The notes below the pieces were generated by a model. That model did not search any database. It was given only the letters and a program-made list of their open reading frames with translations, and was not told the origin of the DNA. Below, piece by piece: positions 18,295-63,985 of a stretch of 64,000 nucleotides of DNA (within the stretch, counting starts at the first letter, position 1; the number at the start of each line of letters is the position of its first letter). Origin of the DNA: Alphaproteobacteria bacterium. GTDB taxonomy: Bacteria; Pseudomonadota; Alphaproteobacteria; JBFXJJ01. Made by a program: the position numbers and the translations under genes. The DNA is taken from the NCBI GenBank assembly GCA_050175015.1, contig JBFXJJ010000005.1, positions 108,953-172,952 of the forward strand, given 5' to 3'.

Positions 18295-21200
18295 CTAAAC
18301 AGCTCTGGCGTGCCAGGTTTGCTCAAGTGTTGAAGCTAATGCATTGTTCAAGGTTTCGTCTTCGCTTATACTAGACATTCCTTGAGGATTAAATGATGAC
18401 ATCGCCTGTACCAACAAATCTACGCTGCTGCGATCAAGTTCAAAGCCGTCAGATATTGTAAACTGATCAATTTGAGCATCATCACTGCCATACCAGTTAT
18501 TAAACACGATAGCATCACTACTGCCCATAATTGATACTTTAAGGTTTTGTCCTTGTTGACTGAACCACAATTCATCATAATCAGCATTTGATATGTTCAT
18601 AATATCCGTGCCATCAGCATCTTGATTAACAATGCTGTCAACACCATCACCTCGTGCAAACTCATAAGTATCATTGCCAGCGCCACCGTAGAGCGTATCA
18701 TTACCGTCACCGCCACGTAAAGTATCAGCACCAGCACCGCCAATTAACACGTCGTTATCAGCTCCGCCTTCAAGAATATCATCTCCGGCATCACCTCTTA
18801 GGTAATCATTAGCCGAACCACCGAGTATGGTATCATTGCCGTTGTTACCATAAGCAACAACTCGAACCGTTGAGTTGGAACCATTAATAACGTCATCTCC
18901 GGCTGAACCAATAACATTCTCAATTGAAGTTGCCGCTAGGTCTAAAGTCATTGCTGTTTGCAGGGTTGCAACATCGGAACCTTCACCACCATTGATCTCA
19001 ATGTCATCGCTGTCAATGTAAAGACTATCATTACCGTCGCCGCCACGTAAAGTATCAGCACCAGCGCCGCCAATTAACACGTCGTTATCAGCTCCGCCTT
19101 CAAGAATATCATCGCCGGCATCACCTCTTAGGTAATCATTAGCCGAACCGCCTAGTATGGTATCATTGCCGTTGTTACCATAAGCAACAATTCGAACCGT
19201 TGAGTTAGAACCATTAATAACGTCATCTCCAGCTGAACCATTAACATTTTCAATTGAAGTTGCCGCCAAGTCTAAAGTCATTGCTGTTTGCAGGGTTGCA
19301 ACATCTGAACCTTCACCCCCACTTATTTCAACATCATCGCTGTCAATGTAAAGACTGTCATTACCGTCGCCGCCACGTAAAGTATCAGCACCAGCACCGC
19401 CAATTAACACATCGTTATCAGCTCCGCCTTCAAGTATATCATCTCCGGCATCACCTCTTAGGTAATCATTAGCCGAACCGCCTAGTATGGTATCATTGCC
19501 GTTGTTACCATAAGCAACAACTCGAACCGTTGAGTTAGAACCATTAATAACGTCATCTCCAGCTGAACCATTAACATTCTCAATTGAAGTTGCCGCCAAG
19601 TCTAAAGTCATTGCTGTTTGCAGGGTTGCAACGTCGGAACCGTCGCCGCCATTGATCTCAACATCATCGCTGTCAATGTAAAGACTGTCATTACCGTCGC
19701 CGCCACGTAAAGTATCAGCACCAGCTCCGCCAATTAATACATCATTATCAGCTCCGCCTTCAAGAATATCATCTCCGGCATCACCTCTTAGGTAATCATT
19801 AGCCGAACCGCCGAGTATGGTATCGTTGCCGTTGTTACCATAAGCAACAACTCGAACCGTTGAGTTGGAACCATTAATAACGTCATCTCCCGTTGAACCG
19901 TTAACGTTCTCAATTGAAGTTGCCGCTAGGTCTAAAGTCATCGCTGTTTGCATAGTTGCAACATCGGAACCTTCACCACCATTGATCTCAACATCATCGC
20001 TGTCAATGTAAAGACTGTCATTACCGTCGCCGCCACGTAAAGTATCAGCACCAGCGCCGCCAATTAACACATCGTTATCAGCTCCGCCTTCAAGTATATC
20101 ATCGCCAGCATCGCCTCTTAGGTAATCATTGCCGCCAAAGCCATAGATAATATCGGAATCAGATGTGCCATAAATAACATCACGTTCTTCTGTGCCTATA
20201 ATCTCATTCGGAGCGGCTGTTAATGTTGGATCTGTTAAGTCTATATCTCCGCCGTTTTTATCCTTTAAAAATTCAACAACAGCATTAGCATCAGAATAAT
20301 GGTTTTGAACACGCATTGTATCGTTACCATCATTTATCGATAAAACTAAATCATTGCCATCACGGGTGAACGTAACATCAGTAACCGAAAGTCCTGTCTT
20401 GAGCATAATAACATCGGCAACATCTCCTGTTTCGATAATAGTATCGTGATCAGAACCTGTGCCAAACAAATAAGTGTCAAATGAACCATGGCCACCCATT
20501 AAAATGTCGTTGCCTTCACCTCCGTCTAGAATATCATTACCAGCGAGGGTTATTAAAGTGTCATCGCCTGTGCCGCCAAATACATTGTCATCACCCGTGC
20601 CACCGGTAATATTATCATCACCACCCATACCAACTAACGTGCAGCCTAAATCATTGCCCGTTAAAGTTTCAGCTTCATCGGTGCCGTATTGTGGGAGGTT
20701 GGTTAAATCGCCAATATTAATAGAAAAATCATCAAAATTAATTTTCTCAATACGGTAGCCACTATCAGTAAGATCATATTGTCCGTATATATCAACGTGT
20801 TCAAAAGTGCTGTTGAGATAGATCTTCATTGTAGTATTTTCTTGAAAGAACGTAACATTTGAAGCAGATAAGCCTCCTGTAATGTAAAGAGTATCATAAC
20901 CTGATTCTTCTCTTATGGTATCAACTCCATAACCTATACCAAAAATATATGTGTCGTTATTAGAACCTCCTCGAAGATTATCATTCCCAGATCCGCCATC
21001 TAGAGTATCATTGCCTTCGTCACCATAAAGGACATCATTTCCAGAACCACCATACAAAATAACATCATCACTATCACCATAGAGACGGTCATCATCATCA
21101 CCGCCATATAAAATATCATGACCTTTTCCAGCATAAAGGCGATCATTTCCACTGCCTCCATCTAGAATGTCATCACCGTCGTCACCATAGAGATGGTCAT

Positions 21201-29056: not shown

Positions 29057-29160
29057 TTATGCCGCAGATTTAATTTTTGATGTTATTTTATCACCATTTG
29101 ATAAAATGGTGTTATCGTAGAAAAGTTTTGTTCTTGTTCTGTTAAAGGTGTTTCGCTCAT
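29057..29160 (-). pseudogene. Possible vestigial head of a fourth cassette
   Basis: GGGGAG RBS and ATGA-coupled start after ankyrin gene; MSETPLTEQEQ, then another frame LSNGDKITSKIKSAA*. Confidence 0.4.
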
Positions 29161-30791
29161 AGATTAACTCCCCAATGATTAGTATTTTTTTTATCTTTAA
29201 ATAAGTAGATTATTATAAAAAATAAAAAATTTGATAAATGAATAAAAAATAAAAAAAACATAGTATATGTCATAGCTGAATATGGTATTTCAATTTGAAG
29301 CTTTTTAGGATCACAAAACATCAAAAATAAAGAGAACATGCTTAAAGAATAAAAAATAATTAAACCTGAAAACAAGGTTGTTATTGGTGGATTATTTTTT
29401 TGTAAATCTATTTTAGTAAAAAAAGCATCTATTGGAAACACAGTTGAACATATTATAATGATTAAAAGATAAACATAAATATAACTATCTGAGCTTAAAT
29501 GTCTTATAGAAAAAGTTTGTTTATTGTAGTCGAAAAGCCAAACGTTCTTCCATATATCAGTTAAATAAATAGGACCGCTACAAGAATTGCCATAGTAAGC
29601 CCTGATAAAATCACCTATAAAAATAGCAATAAAAAATACCCAAAATGCAATTTCTCCTTTTTTTGATTTGCCTAAAAAACATTCCTCATGTTGAGGCATA
29701 CGATATCTAAAAAAAGTAGACACAACAAAAATTAAAGCTAAGGTAACAGGGATAGTAGCTATAGCATATTGGTTTTTCTGCCATAGCAATACAACCTGTA
29801 ATAAGATTATGTAGGAAACACTAAAAACACTATAACAACGATAAAGCAACCCTGTTTTAAATTTATTGATGGCTTTATCTGCTGTCTCACCGTTATTATC
29901 CTTAATATTAGCATCGGCTCCAGCATCAATAAGCGTTTGCATAATTTCAATATTATTATTAGTGCTGGCTATAAATAAGGCGGTTTGCCCTTCATTGTCT
30001 TTAATATTAACCTTTGCTCCATTAGCAATAAGTAACTTTACAACATCTAAACGATTGAAAGTCGTCGCATAAAATAAAGCCGTACATCCATTATTATCAA
30101 GAGCATTAATATTGGCTCCAGATTTTATCAAAAAATCAACAATGTCTTTATTTTTCGAGGCTAACATCAATGGAGTAATGCCGTCATTATTCACTTGATT
30201 GATGTCAAGTCCGAGATTTAAAAATGTTTTTATAATTTCAGGATTAGAATTGCAGGCAGCAAGATGAAGCGCTGAAGATGCTTTTGCTGTTTTATCATTA
30301 ACATTTGCTCCTAATCTAATTAAAGTTTTTATAACTTCAGGGTTTTTATTAAGCCTAGCTGCAAGTAATATGGGGGTTATCTCATGTATGAAGAATTTGT
30401 GCTTTGTTTCATCAAATTCAATGTTAACACCTTTAAACTTAATATTAAGATTATCTCCTGATTTAACGGCTTTTTCTATGTGCTCAGAGGAGCCATAGAT
30501 TATAATATCTAAAAAACTTTTTTGAAAAAAACCTAATTTTTGAAAAAAACCTAATATATCGGCCAAAATTGATAGAGGAATATAACTAATAATAAAAGAA
30601 AAAACGAAGTAGAAAATTATTTCTTCAATAGAGAAAGATTGGAAAAACTTGAAAAAAATTAAAGCTACATATAAAGGTGTATATATTAAAAGCCACATAG
30701 ATAGAAAGATTCTATTAAAATTCAGCGAATTGAATCTAAGAGATAATTTATCTTTAGAAAAAAGATTTAGCAGCAAATAGCGTATGTTCAT
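29157..30791 (-). CDS. Ankyrin-repeat multi-pass membrane protein
   Basis: TPILLAA, SALHLAA, GITPLMLA, GCTALFYA, GQTALFIA repeats between TM regions. Confidence 0.85.
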   Translation of the reverse strand: MNIRYLLLNLFSKDKLSLRFNSLNFNRIFLSMWLLIYTPLYVALIFFKFFQSFSIEEIIFYFVFSFIISYIPLSILADILGFFQKLGFFQKSFLDIIIYGSSEHIEKAVKSGDNLNIKFKGVNIEFDETKHKFFIHEITPILLAARLNKNPEVIKTLIRLGANVNDKTAKASSALHLAACNSNPEIIKTFLNLGLDINQVNNDGITPLMLASKNKDIVDFLIKSGANINALDNNGCTALFYATTFNRLDVVKLLIANGAKVNIKDNEGQTALFIASTNNNIEIMQTLIDAGADANIKDNNGETADKAINKFKTGLLYRCYSVFSVSYIILLQVVLLWQKNQYAIATIPVTLALIFVVSTFFRYRMPQHEECFLGKSKKGEIAFWVFFIAIFIGDFIRAYYGNSCSGPIYLTDIWKNVWLFDYNKQTFSIRHLSSDSYIYVYLLIIIICSTVFPIDAFFTKIDLQKNNPPITTLFSGLIIFYSLSMFSLFLMFCDPKKLQIEIPYSAMTYTMFFLFFIHLSNFLFFIIIYLFKDKKNTNHWGVNL

Positions 30792-31086: not shown

Positions 31087-33279
31087 ATGGTCTCCCAAAT
31101 AATCTCTCCCAATTTTGAAGCATCAAAAAGCGAACAAAAAGCCCCCAATCTTGATACAGGATTGATTGCTCTGGTTATGATTGGCCGCTTTTTTGAACGT
31201 CCTGCTGATCCTTTCCAAATTAAGCATAGTTTAGGCAAAGGTGAGTTACTGCTTTCGGAAATAGATATTCTGCGGGCAGCAAAGCTGCTTGATTTAAAAG
31301 CCAAAGCTATCTCTTCTGATTTTGACCGTATTGCCTCCAAAACGCCGCTGCCTTGTATTGCTCAGAGCAATGATGGGGAGTGGTTTATTATTGGACGGGC
31401 TGCGGAAGATAAAATCTTAATTCATAAGCCTGGGCAAAAAAATCCAGAAATCATCGCTAAAGAAGCTTTTATGAGTTTATGGTCTGGGCGTTTGATTCTT
31501 TTTACCAGCCGCAAAACCACCGTTGGCGGACGCCGCCGTTTTGATGTCTCGTGGTTTATTCCTGCGGTTGTTAAATATCGCCGTTTATTTGCCGAGGTTC
31601 TTCTGGCATCGTTTTTCTTGCAACTCTTTGCTCTAGTTTCACCTTTGTTGTTTCAGGTTATTATTGATAAGGTTCTGGTGCATCACGGCCGCAGCACGCT
31701 TGATGTTATCTTTTTTGCTTTATTATCTATCGCCATTTTTGAAAGTGTTTTAGGCGCACTTCGCACTTATGTGTTTTCGCATACGACTAACCGAATTGAT
31801 GTCGAACTTGGAACACAGTTGTTTCGGCATTTAACAGGACTGCCTTTGGCTTATTTTGGCGCCCGCCGTGTTGGTGATACGGTTGCTCGTGTCAGAGAGC
31901 TTGAAAATATCCGCAGTTTTTTAACTGGTTCGGCTTTGACATTAGTAATCGATCTTGCTTTTACATTCGTCTTTTTTACAGTGATGTTTTATTATGCCCC
32001 TATTCTTTCTTGGATTGTGGTTGGCTCTATTCCTTTTTATGTTGTCTTATCCTTGCTAATTTCACCGCTCCTGCATCAAAGAGTTGAAACCAAATTTAAG
32101 CACGGCGCAGAAAACCAAGCCTTTTTAGTAGAAACCATTACAGGAATAGAAACCGTTAAAGCTATGGCTTTGGAACCACAGTCTCACCGCCGCTGGGAAG
32201 AACAGCTTGCGGCTTATGTTGCTAGCTCTTTTAAGGTTAGCAATCTTGGCAATGTCGGACAGCAGACAATTCGCTTAATTCAAAAAGCGACTTCAGCTTT
32301 AACTCTGTTTTTTGGCGCCAAATTGGTTATGGATAACAGCTTGTCCGTTGGGCAGCTTGTAGCATTTAATATGCTGGCGGGCAATGTTTCTTCCCCAATC
32401 CTGCGTTTAGCTCAGGTGTGGCAGGATTTTCAGCAAGTTAGAATATCGATTGACCGTTTAGGTGATATTTTAAATAATCCTCCTGAGCCTTCGGTTGAAA
32501 CTGGTAGAGCTCCTACAACAGCGCTTAAAGGTCATGTTGTTTTTGAAAATGTTTCTTTTCGTTATGATCCTTCGGGTTCACGCATTTTATCCGATATTAA
32601 ACTTGATATTATGCCTGGTGAAACTATCGGCATTGTTGGTTCCTCAGGTTCGGGCAAAAGTACGCTCACCAAACTAATTCAGAGACTTTATATTCCAGAG
32701 CAAGGACGGATTATGGTTGATGATATTGATATTTCAACCGCAGATCCTGCTTGGCTCAGAAGGCAGATAGGTGTCGTTTTACAGGAAAATATGCTGTTCA
32801 ACCGCTCGGTTAGAGATAATATTGCTATTACCAATCCTTCCGTTCCTATGGAACGGGTCATTGAAGCTTCTAAGCTTGCAGGAGCTCATAGCTTTATTGC
32901 GGAACTTTCTGATGGTTATGACACAATAATAGGCGAAAGAGGTACCTCGCTTTCGGGCGGTCAACGCCAGAGAATTGCAATCGCTAGAGCTTTGCTTACC
33001 AATCCCCGAATTCTAATATTTGATGAAGCAACTTCCGCTCTCGACTATGAATCTGAAAAAGCAATTCAAGATAATATGGAGAAAATCTGTCAAGGCAGGA
33101 CAATGTTTATTATTGCGCATAGATTATCAACGGTGCGAAGCTGTTCTCGCATTATTGTGATTGAACGCGGCGAAATTGTTGAAATCGGAAGTCATAAGTC
33201 ATTATTAAAATCAGGCGGGCGCTATGCTAACCTGTGGCGCTGCCAAACTGATGATGCCGTTAAAGAGGTGTCATTATGA
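31087..33279 (+). CDS. hlyB: Type I secretion ABC transporter, HlyB family
   Basis: C39-like N-domain without the catalytic Cys (LDTGL), GDTVARVRELENIR, GSSGSGKST, LSGGQRQR, IFDEATSALD. Confidence 0.95.
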   Translation: MVSQIISPNFEASKSEQKAPNLDTGLIALVMIGRFFERPADPFQIKHSLGKGELLLSEIDILRAAKLLDLKAKAISSDFDRIASKTPLPCIAQSNDGEWFIIGRAAEDKILIHKPGQKNPEIIAKEAFMSLWSGRLILFTSRKTTVGGRRRFDVSWFIPAVVKYRRLFAEVLLASFFLQLFALVSPLLFQVIIDKVLVHHGRSTLDVIFFALLSIAIFESVLGALRTYVFSHTTNRIDVELGTQLFRHLTGLPLAYFGARRVGDTVARVRELENIRSFLTGSALTLVIDLAFTFVFFTVMFYYAPILSWIVVGSIPFYVVLSLLISPLLHQRVETKFKHGAENQAFLVETITGIETVKAMALEPQSHRRWEEQLAAYVASSFKVSNLGNVGQQTIRLIQKATSALTLFFGAKLVMDNSLSVGQLVAFNMLAGNVSSPILRLAQVWQDFQQVRISIDRLGDILNNPPEPSVETGRAPTTALKGHVVFENVSFRYDPSGSRILSDIKLDIMPGETIGIVGSSGSGKSTLTKLIQRLYIPEQGRIMVDDIDISTADPAWLRRQIGVVLQENMLFNRSVRDNIAITNPSVPMERVIEASKLAGAHSFIAELSDGYDTIIGERGTSLSGGQRQRIAIARALLTNPRILIFDEATSALDYESEKAIQDNMEKICQGRTMFIIAHRLSTVRSCSRIIVIERGEIVEIGSHKSLLKSGGRYANLWRCQTDDAVKEVSL

Positions 33280-34694
33280 TTAAGCCTAAAATGCCTGAAA
33301 AAATTTTGAGCATAGCTTTAAAAGCAAAGACGTTTTTTATTACGGTTTGGCAGTTTTTACAATCTCTTGCCGAAGGACCCGAGCAAAAGACTTTAGAAAA
33401 ACAGTTTTTACCTGCCGTTTTGGAAATTACAGAAACGCCGCCCTCTCCTCTTGGCAGAACTATGATTTATGTAATTATAACCGTCTTTACGACAGCCTTG
33501 TTATGGGCAACTTTTTCTAAAGTTGACATTGTAGCGATTGCTCCAGGAAAGTTAGTTCCAAGCGGTTATAGTAAAATAATTCAGCCGCTAAAAATTGGCA
33601 TTATTGCTAATATTTTTGTGGAAGACGGGCAAAAAGTTGTCAAAGATGAACCTCTGATTGAAATCAGAGCCGAAGAAACTGGGGCTAATAAAATTCGTCT
33701 GGGGCAGGAGCTTAAGTTTGCTAAGCTTGATGTTGCAAGGCTTTCAGCGCTTCTAGAGCCTATTCCCGAAAAGGCATTCAATCCAGATGATGTAGAATCT
33801 GAACTGCTATCCCAGCATAAAACATTGCTAATCGGAGAACTAGAAAAGTATCGTGCCAGCTTATCGGTTATTGAAAAACAAATTGTGCAAAGTGAAGCCG
33901 AAAAAGCGGTATCTGAAGCCGAAATCAGAAAAATTGAACGTATGCTACCCAATCTTAAAGAAAGGGTGGACGCTAAATATAAGCTGAAAGAACAAGGAAT
34001 TGTTGCTCCTATGACATATTTAGAATTAGAACAAGATTTGATTGATTTAGAAGAGCAGCTTAATATTCAGAAAAAAAGTGTCGCCGAAATTAAAGCGCAG
34101 CTTGAAACTCAAAAAATGCAATATACTGAAACCAAAAACTCATTTAAAAATGATGTGCTTTACCGCATTAATGAAGCTCGCAACAATGTCTCGATGCTAA
34201 AAGAAGAATTATCTAATGCTGAGTGGCTAGAAGAAATGACAACTATAAAGGCTCCAGAAGCCGGCATTATTCAAGAGTTGTCAGTTCATACTGTTGGCGG
34301 AGTTGTTACAGAAGCTCAGCCGTTAATGAAACTTGTTCCCAAGGATAGTGTTTTAGAAGTCGAAGCTATGGTGCTAAACAAAGATATCGGCTTTGTTAGG
34401 GAAGAACAGCAGGCAGTAATCAAAATCGATAGTTTTCCTTTCACCAAATATGGCACAATCGATGCAACCGTTATTGATATATCACCTGATGCGATTGAAA
34501 ATGAAGAACTGGGATACGTCTATAAGGCAAAGCTTAGCCTTGCAAAAGACCATCTGATGGTAGAGGGCAAAAAAGTTATGCTCTCCCCGGGTATGACTAT
34601 CGTCGCCGAAATCAAAACAGGACAACGACGCCTTATCGAATTCCTGCTCTCCCCTATGATTAAATATACCGCCGAAAGTATGAGAGAAAGATAA
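33276..34694 (+). CDS. hlyD: Type I secretion membrane fusion protein, HlyD family
   Basis: FLPAVLEI.ETPPSP, coiled coil, FPFTKYG, LSPGM...EIKTGQRRLIEFLLSP...RER. Confidence 0.95.
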   Translation: MIKPKMPEKILSIALKAKTFFITVWQFLQSLAEGPEQKTLEKQFLPAVLEITETPPSPLGRTMIYVIITVFTTALLWATFSKVDIVAIAPGKLVPSGYSKIIQPLKIGIIANIFVEDGQKVVKDEPLIEIRAEETGANKIRLGQELKFAKLDVARLSALLEPIPEKAFNPDDVESELLSQHKTLLIGELEKYRASLSVIEKQIVQSEAEKAVSEAEIRKIERMLPNLKERVDAKYKLKEQGIVAPMTYLELEQDLIDLEEQLNIQKKSVAEIKAQLETQKMQYTETKNSFKNDVLYRINEARNNVSMLKEELSNAEWLEEMTTIKAPEAGIIQELSVHTVGGVVTEAQPLMKLVPKDSVLEVEAMVLNKDIGFVREEQQAVIKIDSFPFTKYGTIDATVIDISPDAIENEELGYVYKAKLSLAKDHLMVEGKKVMLSPGMTIVAEIKTGQRRLIEFLLSPMIKYTAESMRER

Positions 34695-35933: not shown

Positions 35934-36020
35934 TTATTGCAAAATATTATAACCATAATTAGGATAAAACATAGTTATGGTTAAAAATAATATCATTATA
36001 AAATTAAATTTACTAAACAT
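35934..36020 (-). CDS. Inverted start/signal-peptide module of locus 1 (28-aa OFF-state peptide)
   Basis: GAAAGG RBS; MFSKFNFIMILFLTITMF-YPNYGY-NILQ*; YPNYGY is encoded by the inverted repeat. Confidence 0.8.
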   Translation of the reverse strand: MFSKFNFIMILFLTITMFYPNYGYNILQ

Positions 36021-36537
36021 GGTCTTGACCTTTCATAAAAATGGTAACAAGATTTTAATTTATATTTGTTTTAATTCTGCGCTAGTTTCTAGCAATTATC
36101 AAGAATAAAAAATGCGCGAAATATTATTTTTTTAATATTTAAGATTTAATTTATTAAAATTTGTTACAAAACTATAAACTACAAAGAAGTTTTAAATTGA
36201 ATATAAAAGCAGATACTTCCTATTGAGTAATACATTGAAATTATTGTATTTTATTCCAAGCAAAACTGTTGGGTAACTTGAGGGTAACATTATTTACTAT
36301 AATTTAAAAATATAGCAAAGATGTTTTAAGATTAATATATTGATAAATAATATTTTATTACCATATTTATAAATATTTTAGGGTAACATATAGGTAACTT
36401 TTAAATATTATTTTTTAATATAATTATTTTTTGCATAAATTTAACAATCACATAACACATTGATTTATAATATTTTTAATATAAATATTTTTATTAAAAT
36501 GCTTTAATTTTAAGGATATATCCTAATTATGGTTATA
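35948..36537. promoter_or_regulatory. Invertible switch 1 (19-bp IRs, 552-bp internal segment), OFF orientation
   Basis: TATAACCATAATTAGGATA 35948-35966 and TATCCTAATTATGGTTATA 36519-36537; promoter-like TTGATA-N17-CAGAAT on minus strand 36102-36074. Confidence 0.85.
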
Positions 36538-39227
36538 GTCAAACAGCCATCACAACCTGCTCAGAATTACAGGCGATAAACAATAATCCATCTGGAGATT
36601 ACTATCTAACAAATAATATCGATTGTACTAGCATTGAAAATTTCGAACCTATAGCGTCTTTTTCTGGCTACTTTAATGGTATGGGGTTCACCATATCAAA
36701 TCTAAAAATCAGTCGAAGTTCACAAGACAATATTGGACTGTTTGGCTCTACTAACAATGCTGTTATTATTAATGTTGTATTATCTAATATTAATATAAAG
36801 GGGCAAGCTAATGTTGGCGGATTAGCGGGGTATATGAACAAGTCCTATGTTAACGGCGTTAAAATTTCTGGCTTGGTTGAAAGCAGCAGTTCTTGTGTTG
36901 GAGGTTTATCGGGACGCACAGACAACACTGGTATCTATAGCTGTTCTTTTATTGGTCATAGCAAAGGTCTTAGTGTTGATACAGGTGGAATAGTAGGATA
37001 TTTCCTTACAAATTCAAGTCTTTCTAATAGTTATGCTTCAGGTGTAGTTGAAGGCACGGGATTGGTTGGAGGTTTAGTTGGACGTATGGAAATGAATACG
37101 TCTATAACTAACAGTTACGCAGATAGCTCTGTTACAGGAAGTGATCTGCATGTCGGAGGCTTGGTAGGCTGGCAGGCTTCATCTTCTGTAATTAATAGAA
37201 GTTACGCCGCTGGCGCTGTTTCGGGACCAGAAGGATACGTTGGAGGTTTAGTTGGTTGGGATTATGATAACACTCTGACTGTTACATCATCTTATTGGGA
37301 TATGCAAACTTCTGGACAAGCGACAACAGCAGGAAACAAGGGGACAGGATTAACTACCACTCAAATGAAAACACAAAGCTCTTTTGTTGATTGGAATTTT
37401 GTTGATGTTTGGAAAGCACCAGAAACTAACTATGCAAAATTAAGTTGGGAAGAGACCGTTCCAATTTCAACCTGCGAGGGACTCCAAAATATAAGCAACA
37501 ACCTTGGCGGCAGTTATTATTTAGTAAATGACATTGATTGCAGCGATACAGTTAACTGGAATAGTGGCAAAGGCTTCAGACCTATTGGGCTAAGTGATTT
37601 TTGGAACATAAGTTCTTTTCGTGGAACATTTGATGGTAAAGGTTACAAGATAACAAATCTTTATATTAATAGAACGGACGCCAGCTGTGATCTTGGTTAT
37701 GGATTGTTCGGTTACGCTATACAGGCCATCATTCAGAATGTGGGAATTGAGCAAGCTAATATTAAAGGGCGTTGGATAACAGGAGCATTGATTGGCTTGG
37801 CTACCAGTAATGTTTTTGTAACCAATTGCTATTCTTCAGGAGATATTTCTGCACTAAAACAAGGGGGGCTTGCTTGCGGGCATGACGGCTTATCTCGTGC
37901 TGGAGGACTAATTGGCCAATTGTGGAGCAGCAACTCTAGAATTTATAATGTTTATTCTAATGCTAAAGTCAGCGGTACAGGTGAAGAAATTGGAGGTTTA
38001 GTTGGAGTATTTTATGGATATGCCAATTCAACATCTTATATAAAAAATTCGTATTCTACAGGACTTGTTGCCTGCTCTACCAATTACTGCGGCGGTTTTT
38101 TGGGGCATTTATATGAAAACGCTTATATTATCAACAGTTATTGGGATATGCAAACTTCAGGAAAAGCCTCAAGTGCTGCGGGAGTTGGCAAATCTACATC
38201 AGATATGAAAAGTAAAAGCACATTTTCAGGCTGGGACTTTACTAATGTTTGGTATCTTATTTACGGTGATTATCCACGATTAAAAACCCCCTATCCTGTT
38301 TGCACAGGCTGTGCAGTATTAGAAGATGGCGTGTGTGTAGCGGGCGGCAGTTGTTCTGGTGAACACCCGACGTGTAATGTTACGGGCTGGGTTGGACTTT
38401 GCGAATGTTCATCTAGCACTTGCGGTGATGGTCGAGCTTGTTCTGACGGTGTTTGCGTAAACTGTGATTCTGACTCAGCTTGCGGAGCTTGTGGTTGTGG
38501 GACATCTCAAAAACCAACGGGAACAGGCGCTTGTATGAACAACAGTATGTGCTGCCCTGGCGAATGCAATATGGCAACGGGGGCTAACTCTTGCGGTTAT
38601 AGCGACGACTTATGCCCAACAGGTGTATCCTGCAATCGCTCAACCCTTTCCTGTTGTGCAAATGAGCTTCCTTATTGGCGAAGTGAAAATTGCCGATCTT
38701 GTTCATCGACCAGTGGACTTTCTGGAAATTGTCAAACGCCTGGTATGATGTGCAACTCTCGTTACGACTGTATCGTATGTCTAGCTAATAGCCAGTGTAC
38801 TTGTGAAGACGGTGAAGTAGCAGACGGTATGGGTGGCTGTGTTGAACCTTACTGTTACAGTGACAGCGAATGCGGAGTTGATGAATGCGTTAATGCTGGC
38901 TTGTATAATGCTTTTTGCTCTAACTGCAGTTCAGTAAACAAAGTATGGCACAGCACTTCTTGTGAGAGCTGTCCTGCTGGTTCGGTATATTCTAACGGCG
39001 TTTGCGTATGCTCTGACGGCAAGATGTGGAACTCAGCCAACAATCTGTGCTTATCTCGAGGCGTTATCAGCTCAGGCGGCATCTTAGACTTAAAAACATC
39101 TAATACCATAAATGCGTCAGATGAGAGATACGCCAGAATTAAACGTAAAATGAACCGCATAACCAGCAGTGCTTACGCTGGAGCAGCGCAGAAAAAAATT
39201 GAAGAGGAGGAGGAATCCCAAGAGTAA
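36519..39227 (+). CDS. GLUG-repeat, Cys-rich exported protein body (headless until switch 1 inverts)
   Basis: Frame open from 36498 with no ATG until 36681; repeated VGGLVG motifs, SYWDMQTSG, Cys-rich C-terminal third. Confidence 0.85.
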   Translation, partial: YPNYGYSQTAITTCSELQAINNNPSGDYYLTNNIDCTSIENFEPIASFSGYFNGMGFTISNLKISRSSQDNIGLFGSTNNAVIINVVLSNINIKGQANVGGLAGYMNKSYVNGVKISGLVESSSSCVGGLSGRTDNTGIYSCSFIGHSKGLSVDTGGIVGYFLTNSSLSNSYASGVVEGTGLVGGLVGRMEMNTSITNSYADSSVTGSDLHVGGLVGWQASSSVINRSYAAGAVSGPEGYVGGLVGWDYDNTLTVTSSYWDMQTSGQATTAGNKGTGLTTTQMKTQSSFVDWNFVDVWKAPETNYAKLSWEETVPISTCEGLQNISNNLGGSYYLVNDIDCSDTVNWNSGKGFRPIGLSDFWNISSFRGTFDGKGYKITNLYINRTDASCDLGYGLFGYAIQAIIQNVGIEQANIKGRWITGALIGLATSNVFVTNCYSSGDISALKQGGLACGHDGLSRAGGLIGQLWSSNSRIYNVYSNAKVSGTGEEIGGLVGVFYGYANSTSYIKNSYSTGLVACSTNYCGGFLGHLYENAYIINSYWDMQTSGKASSAAGVGKSTSDMKSKSTFSGWDFTNVWYLIYGDYPRLKTPYPVCTGCAVLEDGVCVAGGSCSGEHPTCNVTGWVGLCECSSSTCGDGRACSDGVCVNCDSDSACGACGCGTSQKPTGTGACMNNSMCCPGECNMATGANSCGYSDDLCPTGVSCNRSTLSCCANELPYWRSENCRSCSSTSGLSGNCQTPGMMCNSRYDCIVCLANSQCTCEDGEVADGMGGCVEPYCYSDSECGVDECVNAGLYNAFCSNCSSVNKVWHSTSCESCPAGSVYSNGVCVCSDGKMWNSANNLCLSRGVISSGGILDLKTSNTINASDERYARIKRKMNRITSSAYAGAAQKKIEEEEESQE

Positions 39228-39326: not shown

Positions 39327-39430
39327 AAGGAGGTGATAAATAGAAATTTAAAAAAACTTTGCAAGAACAAACCCTGATAAAAAAACGAGGAAGCTTTGCT
39401 TTAAGGTTAAGCTTCCTCGTTTGTTTTTTT
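39327..39430 (+). repeat. Conserved 3' element: perfect SD, invariant 52-bp core, terminator
   Basis: 39327-39378 identical to reverse complement of 60987-61038 and of the copy ending 63985; followed by CGAGGAAGC...GCTTCCTCG hairpin. Confidence 0.85.
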
Positions 39431-58505: not shown

Positions 58506-60572
58506 TTGCAAATGGCAAACAATGTTTTAGAAAATATAAATAATATTTTATATGCCAAAGAAGTTCAAAAATACTTAGAATCTTTTGCTCCATTATCTGC
58601 AATAGAAACTATGGGAAAAATAAAAGATATCTGGGAAAAAGAAGGTTTTCTTGAGCCTTCAGAATTAACTGCAAAACTATATAAAATGCAGCTGACTGAA
58701 AAAAATGGAACAGCTCTTTTTAAAAAAGAAAAACTCGTTGATAACATTATTAATGCCGGCTCTCCAAAGGATAAACTAACAGGTTTTGAAGCTAAACCTA
58801 AAACTCCGTTATTAACTGGTTTAGCCCATCTCTACGGTTTAGAAACTGGTAATCCTGTGGCTATTGTTGAAGGCGATTTCAGCAATATGGGCGGTACAAA
58901 TAATAAATATCGTGAAGAAATGAAAAGCTCTAGAGCTTTTGATGGTTTTGCAGAATGTGACTTAGCTGCACGTATTTCTGCCCGCCTCTCTCTCGAACAA
59001 TTACAAGAATTAGCCGCCTCTAAAAATAACGAACTTTCATCTAAAGGTGAAAAACCAAATTGCAAGGTTTTTGCTGTACGCTCTGGCGGTGATGAAATAC
59101 GAATGATTGTTACTGGCATTAAGGTTTCTGATGTTGATGACTTTATTAATGCTAAGGTTCATCCTCAAATTGAAGAATTTACTGCTTGTGCTGGTCTTCA
59201 CGATCACCCACATACCAAAGATCCAACCAATCCTTATAGAACAGGTTTTGGTCTTGCTTTTGCGGTCGATGATTTATCTAACCCTAAATTGGATCCGTTA
59301 AATATTGTTGAAGCTTTAGATAAGCGTATTAAACTGGCAAAACTCGATTTAGGATACAAACGCAAAGGTAAAGTAGCACCAGAAATTGAAACCGCAGTTC
59401 GCTCCGAGATGCAAAAGCAAGGTATTGATGCCGCAAAAATCAATCAAGCCATAAAAATGATGCGTGCAGATGCTTTAAAAAGTTCTGCTAAATATCAAAA
59501 AATGAAACACGGCGTTGCTCCTCTTGATTTTATTCATCAAGCTCGCGATGATAAACAAGGTGAAACAGCTTACGGAAAACTTGCCAATCTTGAAATTAAG
59601 AAACCTAAGTTGCTGTTTGGCAAAATAAAAACTGAACGTGAGTTTTTCGAAAATCCTGATATTACAAGAAAGAATCAAGTTAGCAGTTATCTTGATATGA
59701 TTCTTGGTGCTAATAAGAACGATGCCGATAGATTAATCGCCGTAAAAGCTCTTGAAGCTACAAGAGATATTGACCCACCTACTGGCTTAAACGCTGTTAA
59801 AAGTTTATATGATGATACGGATATGTTCATCTCTGATAGTAAGCAATTAAAAAAAGCTGCGGCTGAAAAAGGACAAATACTCGATGAAGCAAAACCTAAG
59901 GCGGTTCACATTGAACTTGGCAACCTAGCTGGAATCAACGAAATATCACACCAGCACGCCGATGCCGTATTAAAAGATTTTGCTGATATTGCTAAGAAAA
60001 ATGCCAAAGAACTTGGGCTTGGAGATTATGACTTTGCGTTTTATCACGAAGGTGGCGGTAAAATTAAAATGCTGGTTCCGCCTTATGTTAAGTCAGGTAA
60101 AGACAGTAACGAATATGCTCCTGTTTCTAGCGATTTAGTAGAAAAATTCTCTAAAAAAATGGGCGTAGATATTGAGCAAAGAATTAATAGAAAACCTCTT
60201 TTTGACTATTTCTCAGAAAAAGGCTTATCGGTTGATGATAATGATGGTAAACCTTTGAAATTAGGCAATGGGGAACCTATTTATAATGTTTCTAAGCCCA
60301 AAGAAAAGAAATGTTTTAGCGATATCCCTCACCCAAAGCGTCCTTGGGAAAGAGGCATTGCAGTAACAACTGTTGGCGTTGATTTACAGCCTAATGTTAA
60401 AGGTGAAACTCAGCTTAAAAACCTATCTCTTAAAGCTGAAGCTTTAATTCTTAAAAAACGTGATAACGTTAGGCAAATAGCACAAGAAAATGAAGAATCT
60501 GCTAAACGAGCTTCTTCGCCTGAATTAATGAAAGGTGGCTTATTATGCAAAATAATCGACAAAGGGAGATAG
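58506..60572 (+). CDS. Hypothetical protein with two GGDEF-like (palm) domains
   Basis: LLTGL...EGDFSNMGGTN...RSGGDEI and DPPTGL...IELGNLAGIN...HADAVLK...EGGGK. Confidence 0.55.
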   Translation: MQMANNVLENINNILYAKEVQKYLESFAPLSAIETMGKIKDIWEKEGFLEPSELTAKLYKMQLTEKNGTALFKKEKLVDNIINAGSPKDKLTGFEAKPKTPLLTGLAHLYGLETGNPVAIVEGDFSNMGGTNNKYREEMKSSRAFDGFAECDLAARISARLSLEQLQELAASKNNELSSKGEKPNCKVFAVRSGGDEIRMIVTGIKVSDVDDFINAKVHPQIEEFTACAGLHDHPHTKDPTNPYRTGFGLAFAVDDLSNPKLDPLNIVEALDKRIKLAKLDLGYKRKGKVAPEIETAVRSEMQKQGIDAAKINQAIKMMRADALKSSAKYQKMKHGVAPLDFIHQARDDKQGETAYGKLANLEIKKPKLLFGKIKTEREFFENPDITRKNQVSSYLDMILGANKNDADRLIAVKALEATRDIDPPTGLNAVKSLYDDTDMFISDSKQLKKAAAEKGQILDEAKPKAVHIELGNLAGINEISHQHADAVLKDFADIAKKNAKELGLGDYDFAFYHEGGGKIKMLVPPYVKSGKDSNEYAPVSSDLVEKFSKKMGVDIEQRINRKPLFDYFSEKGLSVDDNDGKPLKLGNGEPIYNVSKPKEKKCFSDIPHPKRPWERGIAVTTVGVDLQPNVKGETQLKNLSLKAEALILKKRDNVRQIAQENEESAKRASSPELMKGGLLCKIIDKGR

Positions 60573-60926: not shown

Positions 60927-61038
60927 CAAAAAAAGCGAGAGATTTCTTAAAGATTTAGGTCATTTAAGGAATCCCTCGTTTTTTAAATCAGGGTTTGTTC
61001 TTGCAAAGTTTTTTTAAATTTCTATTTATCACCTCCTT
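60927..61038 (-). repeat. 112-bp direct repeat, copy A (SD element + terminator)
   Basis: Identical by eye to 63874-63985. Confidence 0.92.
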
Positions 61039-61186: not shown

Positions 61187-63184
61187 TTATGGCACTGCCT
61201 CAACTTCTTTATCGGCAAAACCCGCATAAGCACTGTTAGTAATCCTGTTCATTTTACGTTTAATACGATCATACCGACTTTCAGGTGTGTTCTGTGTTGC
61301 CTTGCTTTTGGTATCAATAACACCTTTGGTCGAGATTAGACTTTTCTTAGCACAAATGTTGCTGGCTGAGTTCCACAATTTTCCATCGCTGCAAAGGCAG
61401 ATACCATTATGATACGTCGAACCACTAGGACAACTCTCACACGATCCACTAACCCAAACCTTGTTAGTTGAACTGCAATTTGAACAAAAGGCGTTATATT
61501 GCCCTGCATTAATACATTTATCGACACCGCATTCACTATCCGCAAAGCACAAAGGTTCAACGCAACCTCCTGAACCGTCAGCGACAAAACCATCATCACA
61601 AGTACATTGCATATTGGCAAAACAACTTACGCAATCATAATTGGAGTTGCACATCATACCTTGTGTTGTGCAATTACCAGAAAGTCCACTGGTAGAAGAG
61701 CAAGAACGGCAATTTTCACTTCGCCAATAAGGAAGCTCATTCGCACAACAAGAAAGGGTTGAGCGATTGCAGGATACTCCTGTTGGGCATAAGTCATCAC
61801 TGTAACTACAGGAATTTGCGCCTGTTGCCTTGTTACATTCACCTACACAGCACAAACTATTGTTCATACAAGTTCCCGTTCCCGTTGGTTGTTGTGAGGT
61901 TCCGCAACCACAAGCGCCACAACCATCAGAGGCATCACAGTCAGCACAAGTTCCTGTTGCCGAACAGCTTCGTCCCGCATCGCAGCTTGATGATGAACAT
62001 TCACAAATACCGTTGTTATTTGTTACAACACAGTTTGGGTGTTCTCCTGAGCAACTATCACCAGCTACGCAGATGCCGTCATTCATAACTGCACATCCCG
62101 TGCAGTTTTGTTTTCTCAATTCAGGGTAATTGTTGGTTGGCATATACCAAACGGTATCAAAATCCCAGCCCGAAAACGTATTTTGTGTTTTCAGGTCTGT
62201 CGTAGTTTTACCTATACCTCCTGAACTTGTTGCTACACCGGAAATCTGAGTATCCCAATAGCTGTTAATGCCACAGGAACCGCTACACAAAGCAATTAAG
62301 CCGCCTACATATCCATTGACACCACTGCTTCCATTATAGCTACCATAACCACTGCCACTTCCTCCTGCTCCAGCTCTAGCTCCAGAAACAGCAACCACAG
62401 CATAACTATTATTGATACTATTAGAAGAAGAATATCCCACAAGACCACCAACATAACCTCCACCGCCGCCGCCGCCGCCAGCACCACCATAGTATCCATT
62501 ACTACCATTGCCACCATTGGCTCCAGACGCAACTCCTGTAACATATACATCATTTAAAATAGTACTGTTTGCATAACCTATTATGCCGCCAATAGCACCG
62601 CCACTACCGCCACCAGCACCACCATAACTCCAAGTATTAATGCTCGCACCGCTACCGCAACCACCACCGCCATTACCAAATCCTCCACTGCCACCAGAAC
62701 CACAATTGGCATTGCCACCATTGCCACCTCTACGATTACTGATATCTCCGTAACCGCTAGAATCACTATAAACTCCACCACAGCCACATCCTCCCCGACC
62801 AGAAGCACTGCCAACACCGCCAACTCCAACCGAACCACTTGCTGAATTGGTGCCATTTTGCCCATTAGCACCAGAAAAATTAATCCCAGACAAACCGATA
62901 TTAAAAATTTCAGCGCCGTCAGTATATCCAAAAAGACCGATATAATAATTAGTTGGCCTGTTGATTACCAAATTACTTATTGCAAATCCTCTGCCATTAA
63001 GCTTACCTAGAAAAGGTGCCGTTTTACTACCAATAGGCACAAAGCCAGCGCCGCTATTCCAATTGATGGTATCACTGCAATCTATATCGTTTGCGAGGTA
63101 GTAGCTGCCTGCAAGATTATTGCTCATTGCTTGCAGTCCTACGCAGGTTGTAATGACTGTTTGACTATAACCATTACTAGGATA
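61187..63184 (-). CDS. GLUG-type, Gly-rich and Cys-rich exported protein body (headless until switch 2 inverts)
   Basis: YPSNGYSQTVITTC continues in frame into the 646-aa ORF; Cys-rich part and RY.RIKRKMNRIT.SAYAG tail shared with locus 1. Confidence 0.85.
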   Translation of the reverse strand, partial: YPSNGYSQTVITTCVGLQAMSNNLAGSYYLANDIDCSDTINWNSGAGFVPIGSKTAPFLGKLNGRGFAISNLVINRPTNYYIGLFGYTDGAEIFNIGLSGINFSGANGQNGTNSASGSVGVGGVGSASGRGGCGCGGVYSDSSGYGDISNRRGGNGGNANCGSGGSGGFGNGGGGCGSGASINTWSYGGAGGGSGGAIGGIIGYANSTILNDVYVTGVASGANGGNGSNGYYGGAGGGGGGGGYVGGLVGYSSSNSINNSYAVVAVSGARAGAGGSGSGYGSYNGSSGVNGYVGGLIALCSGSCGINSYWDTQISGVATSSGGIGKTTTDLKTQNTFSGWDFDTVWYMPTNNYPELRKQNCTGCAVMNDGICVAGDSCSGEHPNCVVTNNNGICECSSSSCDAGRSCSATGTCADCDASDGCGACGCGTSQQPTGTGTCMNNSLCCVGECNKATGANSCSYSDDLCPTGVSCNRSTLSCCANELPYWRSENCRSCSSTSGLSGNCTTQGMMCNSNYDCVSCFANMQCTCDDGFVADGSGGCVEPLCFADSECGVDKCINAGQYNAFCSNCSSTNKVWVSGSCESCPSGSTYHNGICLCSDGKLWNSASNICAKKSLISTKGVIDTKSKATQNTPESRYDRIKRKMNRITNSAYAGFADKEVEAVP

Positions 63185-63744
63185 TATCCTATGTTTTTAA
63201 GCATTTTAATAAAAATTTTTTGATTAAAAATATTAAAAATCAATATGTTATGCGTTTGTTAAATTTTGGTAAAAAAGGGTTATATTAAAAAATAATGTTT
63301 AAACGTTACCTATATGCTACCCTAAAAAGATATAAATTTTCATATAAAACACCTTAATATCAATATGTTATATAAAAACAATATTTTTTAAATAACATAT
63401 TTTAAGAAAGAATAGATACCCGTATGTTACCCATCAGTTATTTTTATAAAAATATTTAGTTATTTCAATGTGTTATCTTTGTTGTTTTTTGTTGTTAAAA
63501 TGCAAAAAAGATTGTTAAAAAGATGTTACAAAAAGTTTAAGAATAAAAAGCTACCAAAACTTTTTTATCCAAATTAGCTGCTTAGTTAAAAAATATTATA
63601 CTTGCCAAAGTCGCAAAATCACGGCAAAATAAAGCCAAGTATAATAATATATTTTAATGAAAGGATAAGGTTATGAAAAATAAATATAAGCTTATTAGTA
63701 TAATGTTTTTGATTATAACGCAGCTGTATCCTAGTAATGGTTAT
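63167..63744. promoter_or_regulatory. Invertible switch 2 (18-bp IRs, 542-bp internal segment), OFF orientation
   Basis: ATAACCATTACTAGGATA 63167-63184 and TATCCTAGTAATGGTTAT 63727-63744; promoter-like TTGCCA-N17-CAAAAT 63602-63630. Confidence 0.85.
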
Positions 63745-63783
63745 TATTTATTGTTAAAAAATGTTTCATATATTAAAATATGA
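63673..63783 (+). CDS. Inverted start/signal-peptide module of locus 2 (36-aa OFF-state peptide)
   Basis: AAGGATAAGG RBS; MKNKYKLISIMFLIITQL-YPSNGY-YLLLKNVSYIKI*. Confidence 0.8.
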   Translation: MKNKYKLISIMFLIITQLYPSNGYYLLLKNVSYIKI

Positions 63784-63873
63784 CATTTTTATTAAATATT
63801 TATTATTAATATGGTTTTTATATTATTTTTTTCATTTATGCAACTTTATTTTTAGTTTTAAATCTTAGACTCG

Positions 63874-63985
63874 CAAAAAAAGCGAGAGATTTCTTAAAGA
63901 TTTAGGTCATTTAAGGAATCCCTCGTTTTTTAAATCAGGGTTTGTTCTTGCAAAGTTTTTTTAAATTTCTATTTATCACCTCCTT
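63874..63985 (-). repeat. 112-bp direct repeat, copy B
   Basis: Identical by eye to 60927-61038. Confidence 0.92.

Follow-up and report, generated by a model that had tools for sequence, protein, structure and literature searches.

How would a bacterium express a gene that has no usable start, when a promoter-like site, a ribosome-binding site and a start codon lie directly beside it on a segment that points the other way? This is the question raised by a locus close to one end of a 64-kb stretch of DNA (hereafter the window) from an uncultured alphaproteobacterium, which is represented by a metagenome-assembled genome of 2.53 Mb in 49 contigs (99.4% complete, ~35% G+C); the window corresponds to C5:108953-172952 of that genome, and positions outside it are given throughout as contig and coordinate. 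The HflX protein of the organism is at most 59% identical to any record, its best matches including uncultured Alphaproteobacteria, Rickettsiales, Rhodospirillaceae and Candidatus Odyssella. Here, we describe this locus (locus 2, a companion of the same design in the window being locus 1) as what is, on our best reading, a private ON/OFF switch of a secreted, adhesin-like protein, and as one member of a family of 14 loci that, judged from their sequences, are probably functional inversion switches run in trans and made locus-specific by the spacers of their recombination sites.

An expression front end that faces away from its gene

A repeat search of the window delimits locus 2 by an inverted repeat with 18-nt arms at 63167-63184 and 63727-63744, which are 100% complementary and have 542 nt between them. 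The frame of the adjoining gene runs back through one of these arms to a stop 4 codons upstream of the repeat, leaving the gene without a usable start. By sequence, the gene body is devoid of a promoter, a ribosome-binding site, an ATG and a signal peptide, all of which are located on the segment between the arms. Flipping the segment in silico joins 18 and 665 codons into an in-frame precursor of 683 residues, and a layout of this kind would let the orientation of the segment decide the expression of the neighbouring gene. An earlier interpretation made from the letters of the window (the sequence-only reading) had described the perfect 18-bp repeat, its 542-bp interior, the promoter, ribosome-binding site and start facing away from the gene and the 683-residue fusion, all of which hold to the base.

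Sites that match the 18-mer with at most 3 mismatches number four in the whole window, namely both arms of locus 2 and both arms of locus 1, which is 27 kb away, as against a mean of 0.13 in shuffled sequence, and none of 100 shuffles reached four. Downstream of the outward-facing promoter there is no second gene at either of the two window loci.

In the protein encoded at locus 2, the N-terminal half is rich in glycine and GLUG-like, the C-terminal half is rich in cysteine, and the tail is charged and conserved. No Pfam family matches this protein at E <= 0.01, but it shares 51% identity with the protein of locus 1, for which both PF05342 (Peptidase_M26_N; 40.1 bits, cut-off 27.7) and PF07581 (GLUG motif; 32.3 bits, cut-off 20.5) score above their cut-offs. 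For the cysteine-rich C-terminal half, a search of a protein atlas returned no recognisable relative, all TM-scores being below 0.4.

Fourteen loci of one design

We scanned the genome for an 18-mer ending in AGGATA with an inverted partner (at most 3 mismatches) 400-900 bp away. The scan returned 13 pairs, 12 of which are cassettes like that of locus 2; the other, C6:93914, has 3 mismatches between arms 813 bp apart and was set aside as a chance pair. A thirteenth cassette, C4:93716-94290, has a degenerate repeat with a damaged inner half-site, and a fourteenth is split across the starts of two contigs, C11:2 and C21:110, which share a repeat unique to them. A profile built from the alignment of the 12 cassettes recovers these 14 loci and nothing else genome-wide. 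The sequence-only reading had anticipated a genome-wide family of one design, which the scan bears out; the repeat consensus that it offered fits only the two loci in the window, and that of the family is TATCCT-N6-GGTTAT.

The uniformity of the family is most apparent in its reading frames. In the 13 complete loci, where the arms are 526-567 nt apart, a stop-free 54-nt frame that points away from the gene runs without exception from an ATG up to the outer arm, and both arms are read in one and the same frame; the exact 54-nt distance, noted previously for the two window loci, is confirmed there and extends to all 13. The gene frame is open from the repeat for 522-902 codons in 12 of the 13 and for 1594 codons at the split locus (C11:2). 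As these frames stay open despite a mutual identity of 30-77% between the gene bodies, the bodies are evidently kept as coding sequence. The recurrence of one arrangement at 13 loci with different sequences excludes an origin by chance or misassembly; the sequence-only reading had called chance or a single misassembly unlikely.

The remaining complete locus, C21:16223-16795, is a decayed member, with a body of 36 codons, no ribosome-binding site, no strict match to the IHF consensus (see below) and a weaker signal peptide; its spacer is still identical in both arms. Cassette and spacer alike are private to each of the 13 complete loci, which is not the arrangement of a single expression site of the Mycoplasma pulmonis vsa type. 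Six of 13 gene bodies run into contig ends, and the family may be larger than assembled because its conserved 3' parts break the assembly. A 40-bp repeat (TCTTGCAAAG...CACCTCCTT), found ~100-150 nt downstream of the stop codons of family genes, has eight exact copies in the genome, located in the window (60999-61038, 39327-39366 and 63946-63985), at the starts of C2, C4, C8 and C17 and at the end of C7; in six of the eight, a contig end is no more than ~55 nt away, and one of these six lies at the end of the contig that holds the window.

Spacers that match within loci and differ between them

Each arm consists of ATAACC, a 7-bp spacer and GGATAT, and the inverted half-sites, ATAACC and ATATCC, agree in 5 of 6 bases. 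The 14 loci have 14 different hexamer spacers, which differ on average at 2.57 of 6 positions between loci, and at every one of the 14 the spacer is identical in the locus's own two arms; when arms were re-paired at random, no more than 8 loci matched in any of 200,000 trials. In the youngest pair of cassettes, C10 and C17, which are 93.6% identical, one spacer base differs and has been changed in both arms. Mismatches between the arms of a locus fall solely at positions 13, 17 and 18, in the outer half-site, the degenerate C4 locus being the exception; following a crossover within the spacer, it is the outer half-site that would stay with the flank.

Tyrosine recombinases such as lambda Int, Cre and FLP recombine partner sites only if their spacers are identical, and exchange inside a spacer makes the two copies uniform. 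The pattern of arms and spacers is that to be expected of ongoing site-specific recombination, and would fit neither a frozen rearrangement nor the terminal repeats of a transposon. As the spacers differ from locus to locus, 14 dispersed sites served by one enzyme could not recombine with each other; a cassette would have only itself as partner, and the chromosome would be spared from scrambling. A lone core-like site elsewhere (C19:30470) lies inside an unrelated coding region and was attributed to chance.

A probable recombination site inside a signal peptide

The intact gene bodies all begin with Y-P-x-x-G-Y-(S/A)-Q, and 12 of 13 go on with T-A/V-I-T/S-x-C, C11:2 having Q-S-C-T-T. What they lack is exactly a signal peptide, since distant homologues (for example P0011, P0014, P0017, P0020, P0024 and P0053 among the proteins fetched from databases) carry one before the same motif, an ordinary N-terminal signal peptide being followed within ~10-25 residues by I-[ST]-T-C-x-x-L-Q. 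The 18 residues encoded on the cassettes have 1-3 Lys or Arg near the N-terminus (at locus 2, 3 Lys in residues 2-7), and then a hydrophobic stretch, whose mean hydropathy is 2.0-3.2 in the 12 loci with intact genes (2.30 over residues 8-18 at locus 2) as against 1.33 in the decayed locus. With the Y-P-x-x-G-Y-S/A that the repeat encodes, the leader comes to ~25 residues; positions -3 and -1 are occupied by small residues, and the likely cleavage site lies between G-Y-S/A and Q, just after the repeat. Secretion of the family proteins is well supported, and the combination of signal peptide and adhesin-like domains suggests that they are exposed at the surface. A lipoprotein reading of the leader was rejected, as the first cysteine (I-T-T-C) follows threonine and not Gly, Ala or Ser, and homologues show the motif after their own cleavage sites.

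A search with the gene body for related loci found 76, distant and of the GLUG type, mostly in DPANN archaea and bacteria of the Candidate Phyla Radiation (CPR), with at most 57% identity over short segments. Closer relatives come from other datasets, namely P0004, P0006 and P0009, which are 43-54% identical to the family and look as if they were also OFF. Among the 61 fetched proteins, YPxxGY occurs in only two, P0009 (from another dataset, with no signal peptide) and P0010 (from this genome), and a signal peptide followed by YPxxGY occurs in none. Gene callers start P0001, P0002, P0003 and P0030 of this genome, and P0004 and P0006 of others, at the first internal Met beyond the repeat, for example MSNNLAG. 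Family proteins that are mis-started in this way look cytoplasmic and truncated, with the consequence that the secreted repertoires of uncultured bacteria are under-counted.

Arm-type and IHF-like sites within the cassettes

The cassettes have a median identity of 52%, yet their alignment contains shared conserved islands. Counted from the gene-side arm, these are an IHF-consensus site at ~54, a pair of GYTACCY repeats at ~120/131, a further IHF-consensus site at ~174, a second pair at ~229/240 and an IHF-like site at ~276, after which come the promoter block, GAAAGGG and the ATG; within a pair, the GYTACCY repeats are 11 bp apart. The promoter block (CTTGCAA...GCAAAATAAAG) is conserved across the alignment, and the third IHF-like position is a strict consensus match in five other cassettes (strict matches at ~265-281 in C6:50706, C11, C13 and C27). 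For the strict IHF consensus we used WATCAANNNNTTR, which has 18 matches in 7,117 bp of cassettes, all on one strand, compared with a mean of 2.25 and a maximum of 8 in shuffles; this amounts to 2.5 per kb in the cassettes as against 0.17 per kb genome-wide. Three genes of the HU/IHF family (PF00216) are present in the genome. The loss or weakening of the ribosome-binding site, the IHF sites and the signal peptide in the decayed C21:16223 locus suggests that selection maintains them elsewhere.

Comparison with the 40 nearest genomes of the collection searched, all of them class-level relatives only, showed the motif pair to be not above background, and a single match in G022, which stands after a peptidase gene, looks like chance. 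Among 400 other genomes of the class, 10 have one or two matches to the motif pair, similar to a reversed-pattern control, and the present genome has 19. A scan of a genome contig collection with the two-pair pattern found no second instance of the cassette, and the two stretches returned by the same scan of metagenome contigs, an IS21-like element and a tandem repeat, were discarded as unrelated.

A candidate recombinase

Serine recombinases (PF00239) have no match in this genome (99.4% complete), the control search being positive in 12 of 14 reference genomes, and the catalytic domain of tyrosine recombinases (PF00589) has 17. A search for at least three same-strand GYTACCY sites within 160 bp identified 13 places, 12 of which are cassettes. 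The other is C1:265048-265196, where two repeat pairs end 36 nt upstream of the ATG of a 424-residue integrase (C1:263738-265012). Single GYTACCY sites number 373 genome-wide, and by our own estimate the cluster on C1 is not expected by chance from these.

The integrase matches PF13356 (Arm-DNA-bind_3, E 4e-13), PF14659 (Phage_int_SAM_3, E 1.4e-6) and PF00589 (Phage_integrase, E 5.8e-19), all above the cut-offs, and its catalytic Arg, His-x-x-Arg, His and Tyr motifs align with those of XerH. Its neighbours are xerD on one side and lptF/lptD on the other, and the vicinity contains neither a tRNA gene nor a small Xis-like open reading frame. In the search of 400 further genomes of the class, the nearest homologues were those of G002 (63% identity) and G159 (55%). 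Both adjoin tRNA-like sequence, and the ATG of both is preceded, in the same position, by a GTTAGCT-N4-GTTAGCT pair; the pair in G002 has another copy 10 kb away, as expected for the ends of an island. Directly upstream of an integrase homologue, a GTTACCC-type pair is found in 2 of 9 fetched loci from other genomes (G302 and G088). In G302, a TACCCAT..GTTACCC pair occurs twice, 21 kb apart (C1:4888615 and 4910008 of that genome), one copy lying ~35 nt before the integrase homologue (26% identity), and the two copies look like the ends of an island.

As homologues carry analogous pairs before their ATG, we read the pairs as arm-type sites of this integrase subfamily, which in the present genome would, on the best reading of the motif's distribution, have spread into the 14 cassettes. 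Taken together, these features tip the balance slightly in favour of the C1 integrase as the enzyme that runs the switches. We considered and dismissed an extended homology of the cassettes to the DNA that precedes the integrase gene, since the profile matches it at one arm pair only, and a database search with the C1 integrase for related loci gave two weak matches. A paralogue with 58% identity (C4:203513-205020), whose ATG is preceded by three CAGGAACC repeats and which has the 3'-end fragment of a tRNA ~190 nt upstream, looks like an island integrase of the ordinary kind, with arm sites of another sequence. Tyrosine recombinases of 332 and 317 residues are encoded in tandem at C39:138-2086, on a contig of 3.9 kb, and may be part of a mobile element.

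Orientation of the cassettes

In the assembled state, 13 loci are OFF and one is ON. The latter is read from C21:110, where the sequence to the right of the repeat is an outer flank, scoring 105 to the outer flank of C13 as against at most 26 to any gene flank, and the sequence to the left has, in place of signal-peptide coding, the inner end that normally adjoins the gene, with the first ATCAATATGTTAT site. Positions 606-684 of the profile match C21:106-184 on the plus strand (E 4e-9) and positions 31-140 match C21:127-18 on the minus strand (E 1.2e-5); the whole cassette profile is collinear in the other 13 loci. The contig that bears the partner gene, C11:2, begins 1 nt before the shared unique repeat, a break that would be a branch of the assembly graph if both junctions were present in the reads.

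Only one public run (X1) has this DNA, in the form of contigs only and maybe from the same read set as the assembly. One of its contigs spans 61712-63901 in the OFF orientation, with 0 differences and no joints reported. As contigs drop minority forms, those of X1 neither support nor refute inversion. Loose ends at 63143 and 63186 were considered as a signal of inversion and traced to contigs of paralogues, the letters after 63186 matching the C11:86366 cassette. The switchability proposed in the sequence-only reading has indirect support: the spacers co-vary in 14 of 14 loci and one locus is oppositely oriented, but no read or contig has locus 2 flipped.

Proposed mechanism and its alternatives

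In the mechanism that we propose, the cassette in its OFF state would fire outward, with only a 36-residue peptide being made. A crossover between the spacers of the two arms would invert the cassette, and its 18 signal-peptide codons would then lead through the Y-P-x-x-G-Y of the repeat into the gene, which is the ON state. The repeat would here encode the c-region of the signal peptide, and as the likely cleavage falls just after it, the mature protein would be left without a scar. Four protomers of the C1 integrase may bind the four GYTACCC arm sites of a cassette and so span the distance to the four core half-sites, the DNA between the arm sites being bent by IHF; this stoichiometry of four arm sites, four core half-sites and four protomers is put forward as a hypothesis. 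Present-day inversion, its enzyme and frequency and the destination of the protein are what we infer here. More tentatively still, an island integrase of the lambda/P4 kind might have been domesticated together with copies of its arm sites, to become the trans-acting master invertase of at least 14 insulated switches, each of them a small attP-like scaffold (four arm and three IHF sites, flanked by two inverted core sites), with the 7-bp spacer as its address code and with the core site placed in the c-region of a signal peptide, which tolerates it. If the single ON locus reflects a rule, this deep-branching and probably host-associated alphaproteobacterium would express the surface proteins of its repertoire one at a time.

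Several observations weigh against this mechanism. The dyad symmetry of the core site extends to only 5 of 6 bases per half-site and is, alone, weak evidence; the -10 hexamer of the promoter-like site is weak, and promoter-like matches in the region are not enriched, at 11 as against 10.0 +/- 3.3 in shuffles. Contig C21 runs through the repeat unbroken, so that heterogeneity is not seen on both sides there, and the contigs of X1 hold no sequence in which locus 2, or any one locus, appears in both orientations. No related genome with the system was found, and with it no comparison of orientation across strains. The C1 integrase adjoins no cassette, its assignment coming from the shared motif, and other enzymes are at hand, in the form of two simple tyrosine recombinases in tandem on C39 and ~12 further tyrosine recombinases. 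P0004, P0006 and P0009 are all without a signal peptide, two starting at an internal Met and one reading in from upstream of YPKYGY. Finally, the count of 13 OFF loci in 14 is compatible with a strong bias to OFF, and equally with loci that no longer flip.

The last two points are also those to be expected of fossil switches, which once inverted and are now locked mostly OFF, with their genes silent or decaying, and to them can be added the body of C21:16223, decayed to 36 codons, and the damaged inner half-site of C4:93716. We consider this improbable, as twelve bodies are open for 522-1594 codons at ~35% G+C in spite of their low mutual identity, the spacers match within every locus though diverged between loci (with one change since the duplication that gave C10 and C17), and one locus is in the ON orientation; the decayed locus shows what relaxation looks like, and the other loci look different. 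A different doubt concerns the enzyme. The switches could be real but flipped by another recombinase, be it the tandem pair on C39, one of three 354-residue integrases or Xer, in which case the GYTACCC/IHF-like array would be a transcriptional control region or the binding region of some other protein. The inversion switches described so far are run by simple tyrosine recombinases, and arm-binding ones are typical of mobile elements, as the account in PMC8138268 has it. The 17 matches to PF00589 include the 317- and 332-residue pair, and a 354-residue integrase is encoded 3.7 kb from the decayed cassette. However, no cassette motif occurs near these genes, the sole cluster outside the cassettes standing before the C1 integrase, whose homologues carry analogous pairs at the same place, and the fixed spacing of four arm sites and three IHF-consensus sites agrees with the layout generally known for arm-binding integrases. 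We therefore hold another enzyme to be unlikely.

That the cassette is instead a miniature transposon inserted in the 5' ends of the genes would account for a repeated element of ~540 bp with terminal inverted repeats in 14 copies. Yet the terminal repeats differ between copies and match within a copy, the repeat is in frame with the coding sequence on either side, the very parts that the gene lacks (promoter, ribosome-binding site and signal peptide) come with the element at a constant distance of 54 nt, copies stand only before one gene family and always at the same codon, and the interiors are ~52% identical, unlike those of a recently mobile element, all of which makes such an origin very improbable. 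An artefact of assembly would be conceivable for a metagenome in which several family genes end at contig breaks, and is hardly credible for an arrangement repeated at 13 loci with different sequences, one of which is spanned with 0 differences by the separately built X1 contig (maybe from the same read set). The switch mechanism set out above is the one that we prefer.

Relation to known inversion systems

Phase variation by DNA inversion is well known; what is unusual here is that the flipped unit is a whole expression front end including the signal peptide. The nearest parallel in design is found in Mycoplasma penetrans, where, as summarized in PMC3047005 (citing Horino et al. 2009), the mpl (P35) lipoprotein genes have one invertible promoter each, with 12-bp repeats private to the gene. 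The two systems share, on that summary, many paralogous surface-protein genes that each have their own cassette and their own repeat, and a recombinase, encoded elsewhere, thought to act in trans. Unlike the mpl elements, in which the invertible part is a promoter, those described here comprise ~540 bp with a ribosome-binding site, a start codon and 18 signal-peptide codons, and their repeat lies inside coding sequence; they also contain the arm-type and IHF-like arrays, have a candidate enzyme of the arm-binding type and belong to an alphaproteobacterium, not a mollicute. A recombination site within coding sequence is a feature of M. pulmonis vsa and of Ureaplasma mba/UU172 as well, although these are presented in PMC3047005 as moving one expression site among several silent genes, or toggling between two genes, inside a single locus, whereas here each gene has a private ON/OFF cassette.

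Surveys of invertons list hundreds that are 'partial intergenic' (PMC10028968), and the present cassettes resemble these as they are described in the main texts of PMC10028968 and PMC9881135, in having one arm inside a gene and the other outside. Inversions that alter genes are characterized in PMC9881135 as usually keeping the upstream part and swapping downstream (C-terminal) parts, shufflons and hsdS being examples. The term 'signal peptide' has no occurrence in the main texts of these two papers, the supplements of which could list a similar case. To place the recombination site in that part of a signal peptide that is cleaved off would be a neat answer to the problem of a DNA site inside a protein, and the family, with 14 sites, 14 spacers and a perfect match within each locus, lends itself as a natural experiment on whether the identity of spacers serves as a code that insulates the loci.

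With regard to the enzyme, the heterobivalent integrase systems of the lambda and P4 type have 7-mer arm repeats at helical spacing, interleaved IHF sites and an adjoining core site. The candidate described here is like them in its arm-binding domain, and the cassettes are like them in having direct 7-mer repeats with IHF-consensus sites next to a core with a 7-bp spacer. Unlike those systems, which integrate and excise elements at tRNA genes, as the nearest homologues of the C1 integrase do, this integrase stands alone among housekeeping genes, and inversion, not integration, is to be expected because the motif is placed between inverted core sites at 14 chromosomal loci. The E. coli fim switch (FimB/FimE) is a single, promoter-only locus with IHF involved and adjacent recombinase genes whose products have no arm-binding domain. 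The present system would resemble it in using a tyrosine recombinase to invert a promoter-bearing segment with the help of IHF, and differs in its many loci, in a cassette that extends beyond the promoter and in a candidate enzyme that is remote and arm-binding. In the tyrosine-recombinase classification of PMC8138268, fim is named as a tyrosine-recombinase switch, and the scheme as laid out there assigns arm-binding enzymes to mobile elements and switches to other recombinases. A housekeeping use of an arm-binding integrase, if true, would blur the rule, as drawn from that scheme (PMC8138268), that such enzymes mark mobile elements, which would matter for genome annotation. Our literature searches found nothing pertinent on an arm-binding integrase running an inversion switch, or on such switches in Alphaproteobacteria, though accounts could still be in print. 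New is the combination, namely a private cassette per gene, a signal peptide on that cassette with the core site in its c-region, insulation coded by spacers, an attP-like interior and a probably domesticated integrase.

Features of the window

The coordinates of both loci in the window are collected in Table 1.

Table 1. Sequence features of locus 2 and locus 1, in window coordinates
Feature	Position	Strand	Remarks
Locus 2, start-less gene body	61187..63184	-	665 codons open from repeat-encoded YPSNGY (YPSNGYSQTVITTC...)
Locus 2, gene-side repeat arm	63167..63184		Core site ATAACC-ATTACTA-GGATA(T); encodes Y-P-S-N-G-Y of the predicted signal-peptide c-region
Locus 2, IHF-consensus site H1 (AATCAATATGTTA)	63238..63250	+	54 nt from gene-side arm; conserved alignment column
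Locus 2, arm-type repeat pair 1, GTTACCT-N4-GCTACCC	63305..63322	+	Motif and cassette alignment
Locus 2, IHF-consensus site H2 (TATCAATATGTTA)	63358..63370	+	Consensus match
Locus 2, arm-type repeat pair 2, GATACCC-N4-GTTACCC	63415..63432	+	Motif and cassette alignment
Locus 2, third IHF-like site, relaxed (TTTCAATGTGTTA)	63463..63475	+	Cassette alignment; non-strict at locus 2
Locus 2, promoter-like TTGCCA-N17-CAAAAT	63602..63630	+	Faces away from gene as assembled
Locus 2, ribosome-binding site GAAAGGA	63659..63665	+	Sequence and alignment
Locus 2, signal-peptide n- and h-regions, 18 codons (MKNKYKLISIMFLIITQL)	63673..63726	+	ATG at 63673, exactly 54 nt before repeat
Locus 2, outer (off-side) repeat arm	63727..63744		Perfect partner of gene-side arm
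Locus 2, predicted OFF-state product, 36-codon open reading frame	63673..63783	+	Signal-peptide start, YPSNGY and 12 further codons
Locus 2, terminator-like hairpin in outer flank	63870..63886	+	Downstream of outward-facing promoter
Locus 1, cassette	35949..36536		Arms 35949-35966 and 36519-36536, 552 bp apart; OFF
Locus 1, signal-peptide start	36020 down to 35967	-	ATG at 36020, also 54 nt from repeat
Locus 1, gene body	36519..39227	+	902 codons from repeat

Among the neighbouring genes, an open reading frame of 688 codons just upstream of locus 2 (58506-60572, plus strand) has no Pfam match at E <= 1e-4. A pair of genes for type I secretion, which encode an ABC transporter containing a C39 peptidase domain (31087-33279, plus strand) and an HlyD-family protein (33276-34694, plus strand), ends 1.2 kb before the locus 1 cassette, and an RTX-repeat protein of 1736 residues with 19 HemolysinCabind stretches is encoded at 18295-23505 on the minus strand. 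A protein of 544 residues (29157-30791, minus strand) has ankyrin repeats between hydrophobic stretches; together with the G+C content of ~35% and the presence of only distant relatives, it hints at a host-associated lifestyle.

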